The position numbers and the translations under genes are program-made. Positions 40,665-62,337 of a DNA stretch of 64,000 nucleotides are shown one piece after another (positions within the stretch are counted from its first letter, which is position 1; every line of letters starts with the position of its first letter). Source of the DNA: Rozella allomycis CSF55 (Eukaryota); NCBI GenBank assembly GCA_000442015.1, contig KE560790.1, positions 1 through 64,000 of the forward strand. The letters are read 5' to 3'. The notes under the pieces were generated by a model. It saw nothing but the letters and a program-made list of their open reading frames with translations. It did not search any database and was not told the DNA's origin.

Positions 40665-41384
40665 TCAATGCAGCTTTCTTATTTCACTGTCAGGGGCTCT
40701 TGAGGTGTCCCCCCACCATTCAAAAAGAAATGAATGTGCAATTTTCACAAACCAAGGCGTCCAGTGAAATTCAAGGTTAAGGAAAAAAGAAATCATTACC
40801 TTTATCTTCCATCATATCAACTAAGGCATCTTTAGAAACGAAAATAGTCTCACAAACTTCATTCATGTTAATTTCAAATTTTAAATCACTTGAGATTTTT
40901 CCAAATAGTATATAATCAACTTATCAATGCAATCTTTTATACCTACCTTCATGCTCCCCCCAAATGCCATCAGAATCATGTGCTTCATACAGGATGCGGG
41001 TTAAGAAATTTAGATCCGAGGGCTTAATCTGTAAATTTAAAATTTTGATTTTACTCCAGTTATTCCCAGTTCATGCTGCAGCTTTCTGACTGCAGCAGCT
41101 TTGACTCCTTCGACACCATCGATTTCCTCCGGAATATACAATGGATGAGAGCAACAAGTGTTAGTCCAGAGCAATGGAAATGTAACCTTTTCTTTCGCAC
41201 GCCGTTGTAATAATAACTCATCGTTTTCATTGAATAGGAAAACAGAAAACGCTCTGTGTAATCTATTGGGGGTAGATAGGTGATGAGCTTCTTTTTTTGT
41301 AATGCTTCCTATGATTTCATCTTTTTCAGTCACTAAAATGCATTTCTCGCGTATTAAATACTCTTCCTGCTTCGGATCAATCAT
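40665..41384 (-). CDS. IDI1: Isopentenyl-diphosphate delta-isomerase (3 introns, last GT-TG)
   Basis: LHRAFSVFLFN, WTNTCCSHPL, WGEHEVDY, NEV, TPWF, EWW. Confidence 0.95.
40772..40799 (-). other. 28-nt GT-TG intron in IDI1
   Basis: GTAATGATTTCTTTTTTCCTTAACCTTG; contains an in-frame TAA and no AG; removal restores EDKEFHWTPWF. Confidence 0.85.
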
Positions 41385-41468
41385 GGAATTTTCTAAAACT
41401 TGAGATGATACTGATGATACAATTATATTTTTTTCTAATTTAAAAATAGTACACTGAAGCTAGCTTTA

Positions 41469-42162
41469 TTAAATAGTGTACATATCCTTCTTGGAATTAT
41501 GCTTTTGAAATATGAAACGGTCTCGATCATCGCGTTTTACTAATTTTTTCCAAGTGTTTCCAATTTCCAATACTGATGTCTCATCGCTTGCATTTTTAAT
41601 CCAAATAGCGAGACGATACATTCTTGATTGTTGTCTTACTGTTATTACGCAACCGCAAACATTGTCACTGTGTTCAAATAGTGAACCGACGCATGCAAGG
41701 ACCTACGTTTACTAGACAGAAAAAAATTACGGTGGTCACCCAAGCTTCATTAACTCTTGGGTCTTTTCTGATGTTAACGTACCAACGACCTCCATTTTCA
41801 TTTTCTGGGTCTTCCCAGCTGGGCTCTATTCCTTCACGAAAATAATGGTAATTAGTTCCTTCAATTAATTCAAATGGAGGTATAATCGAATTATAAATAC
41901 TATGGTTAGTTGAACATATATAATGGAAAAAAGACCTGAAAACGCAAAATAGATCAAAAAATATGTATACTTACCCCCAAAAGTCTTCGACTGTCTTGAA
42001 AGAAATTATTTTTTTCAAGTTATCTTTCCAGTTTTTGTTATTGGACTTCTGTGGAGGTGAATCATACCAAAGAGTCCATTCACCATGAAGAGGGTGTTTT
42101 ACGTTATAATTTTCCTTGTCTTGAAAGACGGTAACAAGATTATCATCGTAAACAGTTGCCAT
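41469..42162 (-). CDS. EIF4E: Translation initiation factor eIF4E (introns 41900-41974 and one of 28 nt)
   Basis: KHPLHGEWTLWYD, TVEDFWGIYN, FREGIEPSWEDPENENGGRW, RLAIW. Confidence 0.93.
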
Positions 42163-42602
42163 TAAAAAGTGGCGCAGGCCAACCCCTGAAAACCAGAATT
42201 CTTTATCAACGCTTTCATATTATGACAAAAGAATAAGAAAGAGATCAAAATTGATATTTTAGCTTTTTATCCAGTGAATTAGATTCTCATTTCTCTGATT
42301 CCGTCGTTAATTTGGTGTTCTTTTTGCTCAACAATCATTTACACCGTTTTAGGCTTTAGCATCTTAATTCTTTAAATATCTTAAATTTGTAATCGTATTT
42401 TGGCTTCTGGAAATGGGAATTTCATGGAGCGTCAAGACAAATTCCGTTGAATCAAGTTTATTGAAAACTAAACTTAATTTAGAATTTTAAACTTCATTTT
42501 CTATTTCTCACCATTCCCTTCGGTGGAAAAGCTCGATTAAAATGGGAAAAAAGAAGTGGTGCTGCCAGAAACATATGGCAAAACCATCATTATTTAGTTT
42601 AT

Positions 42603-58705: not shown

Positions 58706-58766
58706 ATTTTAGCCAGGGTCACATGTGATCACGTGTAAATTTTATAGATCTCGGAAAATTGAATAT

Positions 58767-60570
58767 TTATTTATTTTCAACAACAGGACCAGCAGCTCTT
58801 ATTTCGGAAGAAGCTTTATCAGAGTAGTTCATAAAGTTAGTTTGAAACAATTTGGCCAATTTGACTAGAGTGCTATCATATTCAGCTTTGCTGCCCAGCC
58901 ATGTTTTTGCTGGATTTAATACATGATCAGGAACACCAGTAACCTTTTTCGGTATTTGCAAGTTGAAAATAGGGTATGTTTCAAACTCAGCTTTTGCTAA
59001 TTCGCCCCTATTTCAAAATGTTTTCTTTTTATTACGAATGTATAGCATCAATTATTGCACGCGAATGCTTCAATGCAACTCTTTTACCCACACCCACTGG
59101 GCCTCCATTCCAACCCTAATGGTTACAATTCATATTGCTTACAGTGTTAATTAACCAAGCATCTGCTGAGTGCTCTTTCATTTTTTCTGCCAACATTGTT
59201 GCATATTTTACTGGATGCCATACAAGAAAAGGCTGTCCGAAACATGCTGAAAAAGTGGCCAAAAGTTAGATAAGAAAATTACTATTACTGCAGGTTCTTT
59301 CACACCTTCTTCAGTTCCGGCTACTTTGGCGGTGTATCCGCTAATGAAATGGTACATAGCCTGAGCTGTAGTAAGCTTAGAGACAGGAGGTAAAACTCCA
59401 AATGCATCACATGTCAAAAGTATTAAATTCTTAGGATGGCCTCCCATACATGGAACTTTTGCACCTGGGATAAACTCAATTGGATAAGCACATCGAGTGT
59501 TTTCAGTTAAAGAGCTATCAGTGTAACTAACAAGGCGTGTTTGAGGGTCATACACAACGTTTTCAAGAACCGAACCGAATTTAATAGCATCAAAAATTTC
59601 AGGTTCTTTATCTTTTGTTTTCCGTAATAAAAAGTGATACCACGAGATAGATCAATACATTTTGCATAGCACCCGCCTTCAATGTTAAAAATCCCATCAT
59701 GACTCCAACAATGTTCATCATCTCCAATCAATGACCTATGTGGATCGGCTGATAGAGTAGTTTTGCCTGTTCCCGACAATCCAAAGAATAAAGAAACGTC
59801 CTTATCCTTTATGCCTTCATTTGCACTTGAATGGAGTGACAATACTCCAGCTTTTGGCATCAGGTAATGCATGACAGTAAAGATCCCCTTTTTCATTTCA
59901 CCGGCGTATTGTGTTCCCAATATAACTATTTCGTTACTAATTGAAAGTTACCCATTTCCTTCTTTTTGAAATTGACCGCTACACTGGTTCCACTTGTCAT
60001 TCCCATAGTGTATCTGTTGCAAGGAAATTCACCTGCGTTAATAATGGTAAAGTCAGGCGTTCCAAAAGATTTTAACTCTTCTTCAGTAGGACGAATAAGC
60101 ATGTTATTCATAAACAATGCTTTATTAACTTCATGAGTTCTTATTACCATGATACGCCCTAGCGCATATTATGCGAACCTTGATGCGGTATTTTGGATCC
60201 CATCCTGCATATCCGTCAAACACGTAAAGTCGGGGTTTAGTGTTAAGATAATCAACTGCTCTTTCGCGATTGATCATGAACACATTTTCATCAATTTTGA
60301 TGTTGACCGGACCTTTATCAAGTTTACTAATTAAATACCCCACCAAATGTCATTTTTTGATGTTTCTTCCTCAGTTATACGTTTGTCAGTAGGTGACCTT
60401 CCCTTCTTCGCACCAGATGATGTAACTAGTGCACCGGTGGAGGTAATTGCCGTTCCAGGCTCATACAATATGGCATCTTCATATAATCTGGCAACTTGTG
60501 CATTTCTTATAATGTTCTTTTGGTCAATTCCAGTTTGTTCGCGTAAAACATCTGAAATGGAGCTGGACAT
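58767..60570 (-). CDS. PCK1: Phosphoenolpyruvate carboxykinase (ATP) (7 introns, one GT-TG)
   Basis: [56 protein letters not shown]. Confidence 0.97.
59260..59288 (-). other. 29-nt GT-TG intron in PCK1
   Basis: GTAATAGTAATTTTCTTATCTAACTTTTG; removal restores [20 protein letters not shown] precedes the acceptor. Confidence 0.88.
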
Positions 60571-60937
60571 TGAAGCAGGGGTTACAAATTAATTGAAGTC
60601 AAAATTAAAGATCAACTCAAATTAATTCAGATCAAAAATTGATGTTTAAATAAATTTGAAATCGGAAGTCGTACCTTTTAACAGTTGAATGAAATAATGA
60701 ACACACAGTGAGAATTCAATAGCGTAAATTAATAAATACCTAAATATGCAGCCAAACACAAGATCTAGATTGAAATCTATGGACGATGCCCAGTACACTT
60801 AAAAAATCGGGCTTGATGATGTGTATTTCCTATCGAGAAGTAAATTGTGAAATGCAATCGGATAAAGGTGAAGGAAGGGCTAACAAATTATTAAATTGAT
60901 AATTGAATTTGTAATCATACAAATAATGAATTTATGA

Positions 60938-62337
60938 TTAAAATACATAGTCTTTTGGGCTTAATGCAGTCTTTTTTACTCCCTTTGCATGCTTGGCTTT
61001 TCTAGCTAGATTAGTGACTTGCTTTGCTGATTGTTGAACGATCCTCTTTGCAACAATCTTCTTAACTTCTTCATAAGAGAGTCTAGGAGTGATTTTTGAT
61101 TCTTCGTCTTCTTTATGTTGTTCATTTTCATCTTCAAAATTTAACTTTTCTACTAAATCTTCAACCAACGCTTCATTCTTCTCCTCGCTGTCAGACTTTT
61201 CATCGTTTTGTGAAAGTGAATCTTCACCATCTTCGGAATGGTTTTCACTATCACTTTCTTCATCAAAATTATCGTCGATTTCGGCATCAAATTGTTTGAA
61301 TTCTTTTTGCAATTTCTTCATAAAACCAGACGCTTCCACGTCAACGTCTAGTTTACCCTTTCGAACAATATCTTCAAATTTTGGTACAAACTCGTCTTCG
61401 TATTGAAATCTTTTTCCAAAGAATCTAACAATGCATTGAACATCTCTATCAAAGTACCTAAATAAAGATGATTTAAAAGTCTTACATGTCAGCATTCTGA
61501 TGACTCGTGGAGACCATCTGAGGAAAATCAATCAAAACTGGTTCATCTTCATCAGTCAATACAAGATTAAATTCATTAAAATCTGAATGTATTAACCCAA
61601 CTTGAGCCAAATCGACAATCATGTTCATTAAAGTGTGGTAGAGTTTCTTTGGATCTTCAACTTCATCTACTTGGCACAACGGAGTTCCTTTGATGTATTC
61701 CATCACTATGCAATGTCTATTCACATCAATTGGTTTCGGTACACGGAAGCCGTGTTCATAAAGGATCAATATTAAGGCAACAATTATCTTTTACCTTCAT
61801 AAACGCGAATTCTCTAGCAGCCGCAAGTCTGCTCATATACATCCACGACGCATGTTTCCTCTTGCCCATGTAATCTCTATTAGCCTTTACAGTTCTGAAT
61901 GATGTTCTTCCCAATCTATGAATTTTTAGGATATGCTCTTCGTAATCATTGTCAACAACGAGATAAACATCTGATTCTTTTCCCACACCAATCTGTCTCC
62001 CGACTCCAATAACGACATCTCGCTTTAAAAAGGAATGCAAGGCCAAATAGTCGTATCCACCATAAGTAAGTCTATACCCGTCATCTAGAATATTAAGATG
62101 TATGTAATTATTACATTTCGCATTGCTCAATCTTGCAACTAGATTTAATCTAGTCAAATTTCTGAGAATCTTATTCGTTTGCGTTTTCGCGATGTGAGTA
62201 ATCAGTTGTGTTGGCACTATTTCGTGGTTCTTTGATCCCATTTCAGTCTAATAAAAAAACACAATAAAAATTACAGCAGTAAGTACTCTAAAGTCATCAC
62301 TGGTCAGATACCGAAGTTGTTGCGCATCAAGTTTCAT
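60938..62337 (-). CDS. RIO2: Atypical kinase Rio2 (4 introns, one GT-TG)
   Basis: [58 protein letters not shown]. Confidence 0.96.
61767..61794 (-). other. 28-nt GT-TG intron in RIO2
   Basis: GTAAAAGATAATTGTTGCCTTAATATTG; removal restores [19 protein letters not shown]. Confidence 0.88.

Follow-up and report, generated by a model that had tools for sequence, protein, structure and literature searches.

The 64,000-nucleotide stretch analyzed here (hereafter the window) comprises positions 1-64,000 of contig KE560790.1 from Rozella allomycis CSF55, and the intron counts for Rozella given below come from this single window. Its G+C content is ∼34% throughout, and because its genes close with ordinary stops (e.g., TAA TAA after an eIF4E-like gene), it uses the standard genetic code. 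Four conserved enzyme genes on the minus strand, IDI1, NAMPT, PCK1, and RIO2, each contain a very short intron-like segment that starts with a normal donor and ends in TTG rather than in AG. The genes and segments are the following:

40665-41384, minus strand, IDI1 gene (isopentenyl-diphosphate isomerase)
40799-40772, minus strand, IDI1 intron of 28 nucleotides (nt), GTAATG...TTAAC..TTG, the weakest case of the four
42603-44316, minus strand, NAMPT gene, with seven introns when the parse allows TG
42950-42924, minus strand, NAMPT intron of 27 nt, GTAAGA...TTAAT......TTG
58767-60570, minus strand, PCK1 gene (ATP-dependent phosphoenolpyruvate carboxykinase)
59288-59260, minus strand, PCK1 intron of 29 nt, GTAATA...CTAAC....TTG
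60938-62337, minus strand, RIO2 gene, which a parse restricted to AG acceptors breaks in two at the TG intron
61794-61767, minus strand, RIO2 kinase intron of 28 nt, GTAAAA...TTAAT.TTG

These segments had been singled out in a reading of the sequence alone, which described them as minus-strand introns of 27-29 nt running from GTA to TTG and which claimed that they must be spliced. Both statements hold. In the order listed, the lengths are 28, 27, 29, and 28 nt; every segment has the form GTAA...TTG, and the end is never CG or GG. Retention of the segment shifts the frame in IDI1, PCK1, and RIO2 and brings a TAA into frame in NAMPT. Exon 1 of NAMPT is 100% identical to two R. allomycis CSF55 proteins, exon 1 of IDI1 is 100% identical to R. 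allomycis protein P0179, and a PCK1 exon is 98% identical to a protein of the same species; the next-best matches of the exons are in other early-diverging fungi, at ∼60%-86% identity.

To describe the ordinary introns of the window, we used our own dynamic-programming gene parser, with codon log-odds trained on 42 long open frames. With acceptors restricted to AG and a flat length prior, the parse contained 131 GT-AG introns, 99 of them at 26-29 nt; with trained donor, acceptor, and length models, it contained 111. A core set of 105 introns was taken from the trained parse, one work-around beside the NAMPT site being among those dropped. Core introns measure 26 nt (33 introns), 27 nt (22), 28 nt (26), 29 nt (14), 30 nt (five), 31 nt (three), or 32 nt (two), and their donors begin with GTA in 104 cases and with GTAA in 78. 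The usual YAG rule is loose in these normal introns, with T at position -3 in 62, A in 30, C in nine, and G in four. In 105/105 core introns, the acceptor coincides with the first AG at which the intron reaches 26 nt or more; the same first-AG rule accounts for 99 with a threshold of 25 nt and for 72 with a threshold of 27 nt. Set against the 111-131 GT-AG introns of the two parses, the four TG-ended introns make up 3.0%-3.5% of the introns in the window, which agrees with the earlier estimate of about 3% in roughly 130 introns parsed by hand.

The four segments are like the normal introns of this genome in donor, length, and internal composition, and they differ at position -2. When introns are scored on donor, interior, and length without the last three bases, the TG introns take percentile ranks of 43, 65, 14, and 63 among the 105 AG introns. 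They show the GTA(A) donor, the length class, and the YTRAY motif of U2-type introns and lack the 3' AG. The YTRAY pentamer, which is the standard fungal branch consensus, occurs in all four (TTAAC, TTAAT, CTAAC, and TTAAT), starting 9-13 nt from the 3' end, versus 25 of the 105 AG introns (Fisher p = 0.004, for a motif picked after seeing the four). In every one of them, position -3 is T and position +1 is a purine. The nearest AG downstream is at +73 nt in IDI1, +50 in RIO2, and +13 in both NAMPT and PCK1, where it is out of frame. In AG introns, a TG at least 26 nt from the donor yet upstream of the AG that is used is found at three of 163 positions, versus a background of 5.5% in intron interiors (p = 0.018); this hints that TG is avoided ahead of the used AG, though the composition near acceptors is special.

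Comparison with homologous proteins indicates that the conserved protein is obtained only by removal at the TG. At the PCK1 junction, the Pfam family PEPCK_ATP continues ungapped, with its position 370 at the last-but-one upstream residue and the downstream exon resuming from 372. The RIO1 family likewise passes through the RIO2 junction ungapped, its position 63 falling on the last upstream residue and 65 on the second downstream residue. The NAMPT product of the TG cut is collinear with chytrid and Mortierella-type homologs (P0003, P0012), and the IDI1 frame downstream of the intron matches human IDI at the TPWF..WW motif. Pfam gave no matches for the four short IDI1 and NAMPT exons, and PDB searches with these four exons gave nothing usable from three of them. 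For scoring, we built profiles of 40 homologs each for IDI1, NAMPT, PCK1, and RIO2 and ran a motif-blind scan over every stop-free deletion product, with the donor moved by up to 30 nt either way and the length set from 0 to 80 nt. The GT..TG cut ranked first of 438 products in NAMPT (68.0 bits) and first of 693 in PCK1 (318.2 bits), and in RIO2 it scored 415.6 bits, 0.2 below the best of 855 products (415.8). Among the equivalent top cuts in these three genes, the GT..TG cut is the only one that starts with GT. Because homology fixes the cut and the intron starts with GT, the end is forced, and the chance of meeting TG at three of three such ends is ∼(1/16)^3. The parser itself is noisy when non-AG ends are allowed (a low penalty bridges genes and yields TT, AA, and AT ends) and so cannot by itself show an excess of TG; at PCK1 it preferred a 26-nt cut ending in TT, yet this cut scores 312.5 bits versus 318.2 for the TG cut.

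From the DNA and from protein conservation, we infer with good confidence that the four segments carry real, constitutive TTG acceptors of ordinary U2-type micro-introns, and that position rules the choice of the 3' site. The earlier proposal that TTG is tolerated as an acceptor accords with scores that are the best or within 0.2 bits of the best in NAMPT, PCK1, and RIO2, and 9.6 bits above the public AG model in IDI1, all of these being measures of protein conservation.

In-frame GT..AG options are present at all four sites, and the public gene models make use of them. P0179, an eIF4E-IDI1 fusion, removes a 22-nt GTT...AAG at 40821-40800 and translates the TG intron. P0059, a RIO2-PCK1 fusion from a single-cell assembly, has a 56-nt PCK1 intron that deletes nine conserved residues, and its RIO2 part begins downstream of the RIO2 TG intron. 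In P0001 and P0002 the NAMPT region is skipped or misframed, and in P0002, NAMPT is additionally joined to an AMP-binding (acetyl-CoA-synthetase-like) gene. Each of the four public models that we examined (P0001, P0002, P0059, and P0179) thereby bypasses the TG junction, through unlikely AG introns or through truncation. Splicing in R. allomycis might follow AG only, as these annotations have it and as 105/105 other core introns do, the proteins bearing the consequences: the 22-nt cut in IDI1, the loss of nine conserved residues in PCK1, and skipped or truncated parts in NAMPT and RIO2. We regard this as unlikely. The AG alternatives measure either 22 nt or no less than 50 nt, versus 26-32 nt for all 105 core introns, and the one in IDI1 starts with GTT, versus GTA in all core donors except one. 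From the GTAATG donor of IDI1, the in-frame ends lie at 22, 25, 28, 31, and 34 nt, and none is AG. A fusion to a neighboring gene is found in three of the four public models as well, a sign of automatic prediction with AG only, and the PCK1 alternative removes a motif conserved in chytrid and Blastocladiella homologs.

Against the homolog profiles, every AG alternative scores below the TG model in all four genes. IDI1 reaches 52.9 bits with the TG model, 43.3 with the public 22-nt AG model, 23.0 with the first AG at 26 nt or more, and 21.9 with retention. For NAMPT, over a longer gene stretch, the values are 130.6 for the TG model, 116.0 for retention, 79.5 and 73.0 for the public models, and 27.4 for the first AG. 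The PCK1 scores are 318.2 for the TG cut, 279.3 for a 50-nt AG intron, 227.2 for the first AG (42 nt), and 226.6 for retention, and those of RIO2 are 415.6 for the TG cut, 342.9 for a 76-nt AG intron, 246.4 for the first AG (78 nt), and 239.6 for retention. The cost of the AG solutions is therefore 9.6 bits in IDI1, 39 in PCK1, 73 in RIO2, and 51-58 in NAMPT, and applying this genome's 26-nt first-AG rule at the four sites yields scores near those of retention or worse. The earlier statement that no AG of plausible length and frame exists has to be narrowed: AG options in frame do exist and are in public use, and they are those that fall outside the length class and score lower.

It is very unlikely, in our view, that the four genes are decaying pseudogenes, or that the introns act as poorly spliced retention switches, with TG use minor or absent. 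In favor of such a reading, Rozella is a reduced obligate parasite. All other exons are open and high scoring, however (318 bits for the PCK1 stretch, 416 for RIO2), with no other break seen, and it is improbable that four genes would decay independently and that each would be damaged at position -2 of one intron and nowhere else. In other eukaryotes, the RIO2 kinase is essential for ribosome biogenesis.

We give hardly any credence to an assembly or base-calling error, or to a second allele, such that the true sequence or the working allele would read TAG. DNA runs X1, X2, and X5, from three studies, and RNA run X10 were compared with the window over positions 40600-60599, which include IDI1, NAMPT, and PCK1. 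Records 1 and 2 of X1 have 0 differences and 0 gaps across the IDI1 and NAMPT introns, and record 18 of X2 has 0 differences across the NAMPT intron. Record 17 of X2 has two differences, at 42091 and 41946, both away from the IDI1 intron, where the site is identical. Record 25 of X5 spans both introns with one difference in 3,359 nt, its position not given. The T at -2 of the IDI1 and NAMPT introns is present in the DNA contigs of two runs (X1 and X2), and the depth there is single and full. That this T stands in the DNA, on which the sequence-only reading depended, is borne out by contigs for these two genes; for PCK1 it comes down to one listed piece, and RIO2 is outside the compared stretch. 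In favor of an error or allele are this partial coverage and the two contig populations of X1 in the 54-60 kilobase (kb) region, by which alleles do exist; yet an A-to-T error is unlikely to have recurred at -2 of four introns, and the single-cell-assembly models P0001 and P0059 apparently found no AG there either.

The same comparison brought out two features of the surrounding DNA. Between ∼57500 and ∼59700, X1 contains two contig populations (e.g., 112.8 of 333.9 depth) that carry numerous single-base differences and small indels, and P0059 is at 98%, not 100%, identity, a pattern that suggests allelic variation or strain heterogeneity. Contigs of X1 and X2 join position 55183 back to 53841 with nine extra letters between them, and X2 depth is approximately twofold higher over 54000-57300, inside an ABC-transporter gene; together, the joins at 53841-55183 and the raised X2 depth over 54-57 kb suggest a tandem duplication or a collapsed repeat.

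The remaining candidates were rejected. The donors (GTAATG, GTAAGA, GTAATA, and GTAAAA) are unlike the /RTATCCTT of U12-type introns; a TCCTTAAC-like branch box occurs in the IDI1 intron only, of the four. An introner-type repeat family does not fit lengths of 27-29 nt, and ungapped pairwise matches at 11-18 of 27-28 positions do not exceed what AT-richness and shared signals would produce, which argues against any repeat family. DNA elimination as in ciliates is dismissed, the organism being a fungus and the ends not being bounded by TA. Ribosomal frameshifting or readthrough would place 9-10 unrelated residues within conserved motifs, and the forms that retain the segment have the lowest or near-lowest scores.

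Several observations weigh against the interpretation of the four segments as TTG-ended introns. The acceptor of IDI1 is not fixed by homology, because the length of this region varies among homologs: Deletions of 22 nt score 54.9 bits versus 52.9 for the 28-nt TG cut, and a 22-nt GT..AG alternative does exist for this gene. The earlier claim that the TG junction restores a conserved motif in each case is therefore sustained for PCK1 and RIO2 (by Pfam) and for NAMPT (by collinearity and the scan) and not for the IDI1 acceptor. The claim that 3' sites are set by distance from the donor is likewise upheld in part, the 105/105 agreement with the 26-nt ruler being partly circular, since a length prior is built into the trained parse; with the flat prior, five of 118 introns of 22-34 nt fall below 26 nt. 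As reported by Szafranski et al. (2007; PMC2374985), TG acceptors are found in 36 human genes, where an AG always accompanies them at a distance of up to 28 nt and they never act on their own. As to the reads, the RIO2 site (61794-61767) lies outside the compared stretch. The PCK1 site is covered only by record 32 of X5 among the 32 of 138 pieces listed, and its positions 59260-59288 are without a difference among the 40 of 148 difference rows listed. X1 or X2 may underlie the assembly of the window and would then not be fully independent of it. The runs listed as containing the region are eight of DNA type, from five studies, and no RNA run; X10, a metatranscriptome, gave only chance pieces of 27-38 nt at 90%-95% likeness, with no joints, and is uninformative on expression and splicing.

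If the TTG acceptors are real, a simple mechanism can be proposed. In structures of the post-catalytic spliceosome, the last G of the intron pairs with its first G, and the A at -2 contacts the branch adenosine. Replacing UAG with UUG would thus alter only the contact with the branch adenosine, and the spliceosome would still ligate the exons at that G. Position would be the main guide to the 3' site: Counting from the donor, the spliceosome would take the first usable site at ∼26-29 nt, only ∼5-10 nt past a branch-like YTRAY motif; because the introns are 26-29 nt long, the branch point must sit a few bases from the 3' end. The AG would be weakly checked at the second catalytic step, and a U at -2 would pass where the intron still has its final G, a U at -3, and a good branch motif. 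Work in yeast (Roy et al. 2023; PMC10711555) reports that Slu7 and Prp18 are dispensable when the distance from branch point to 3' site is short and that, without Prp18, sites <10 nt from the branch point are used together with non-AG sites ending in G, UUG being among the most efficient. Based on the short branch distance and this precedent, we propose that Rozella sets the 3' site by geometry and checks it weakly. Our proposal, tentative and to our mind just short of evenly balanced, is that the wild-type Rozella spliceosome has a ruler-set 3' site and has lost much of the check for A at -2, with UUG as a regular and required acceptor in a few percent of introns. The check might have been lost through loss or divergence of Prp18, Slu7, U2AF35, or the proofreading by Prp22.

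The resemblance to known systems is partial in each case. Human TG-AG tandems are also U2-type, with a normal GT donor, a TG acceptor, a pyrimidine at -3, and a purine at +1, but in Rozella the TG would be the only productive site. Indeed, a tandem of the human type was rejected here: IDI1 and RIO2 have no AG within 28 nt (the next are the ones at +73 and +50), and the AG at +13 in NAMPT and PCK1 is out of frame. The frequency differs as well, ∼3% of introns in the window versus 36 genes in the whole human genome. The Micromonas introner elements IE-B and IE-D (PMC3879977) are constitutive GT-TG introns of a microbial eukaryote too, but they form repeated mobile families of 31 members and 100-6,494 nt, whereas the Rozella introns are single, 27-29 nt long, of the ordinary class, and located in conserved enzyme genes, and nothing points to a repeat family among them. 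Yeast lacking Prp18 shares with Rozella the branch-proximal sites, the UUG, and a relaxed -3 (AAG and GAG are common in Rozella too); it is, however, a laboratory mutant that uses such sites as minor alternatives, whereas Rozella would be a wild type with productive, required junctions. In appendicularian tunicates such as Fritillaria, where ∼95% of introns do not follow the GT/AG rule, the major spliceosome also routinely handles introns without GT/AG ends (PMC13326754). There both ends are noncanonical, whereas Rozella keeps a canonical donor and departs from the rule in only ∼3% of acceptors, TG in every case. Paramecium and the nucleomorphs of chlorarachniophytes have uniformly tiny introns, which resemble those of Rozella in their narrow length class, AT-rich interior, and GTA donor; we know of no sizeable class of required TG acceptors in them, though no search aimed at this was made. 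In R. allomycis itself, introns of ∼30 nt without the usual motifs are described for the S23 gene in one report (PMC6349667). No description of TG acceptors in Rozella was found in the literature searched, outside which lay supplementary files and the 2013 genome paper.

Other features of the window include a candidate fifth TTG intron and a possible tandem acceptor, together with the two transfer RNAs (tRNAs) that were the only matches in an Rfam search of the window, which gave no small nuclear RNA:

6396-6421, plus strand, candidate TTG intron of 26 nt, from the parse with a non-AG penalty of -6
63545-63576, plus strand, GT-AG intron of 32 nt in which a TTG at 29 nt, in frame and 3 nt short of the AG, makes a possible TG/AG tandem acceptor of the human type
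11789-11859, minus strand, tRNA-Gly(GCC) (Rfam)
16796-16869, minus strand, tRNA-Asn(GTT) (Rfam)

The candidate at 6396-6421 is flanked by open frames of 107 and 77 codons. AGs stand at 17, 22, 52, and 77 nt from its donor, its in-frame rivals being AG introns of 17 and 77 nt; its host gene is poorly conserved, with a weak Knl1-RWD-like match, and Pfam searches with the exons around 6396 were of no help for this candidate. Another TTG candidate, at 3936-3909, was rejected, as a Met start with a presequence lies just downstream. A 75-nt intron in the eIF4E-like gene (41900-41974, minus strand) breaks the first-AG rule, with a CAG at 39 nt and a GT directly after it; it could be either two abutting introns (39 + 36 nt) or a genuinely long single intron that has a CTAAC box close to its end. 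Four single N bases are present in the window, at 15531, 22210, 26744, and 32905.

All four genes examined are mismodeled in public protein sets, being truncated, fused, or without conserved motifs, and such models can distort gene-content and phylogenomic analyses. This matters because R. allomycis is the reference genome for Cryptomycota in work on the origins of fungi and microsporidia. If the TTG acceptors are true, many of its public gene models would be wrong, and the finding would have practical value for annotating this reference genome, with moderate to high value for specialists in splicing. If RNA bears it out, Rozella would provide a natural system in which U2-type introns, at a frequency on the percent level, have no acceptor other than TG. 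For ordinary introns of conserved genes, it would be the first instance of TG serving by itself, and it would be a natural counterpart of the yeast prp18 deletion. It would link extreme intron shortening, very short distances from branch point to 3' site, and relaxed fidelity at the second step, and how the spliceosome reads AG could then be probed through a comparison of second-step factors between Rozella and other fungi.

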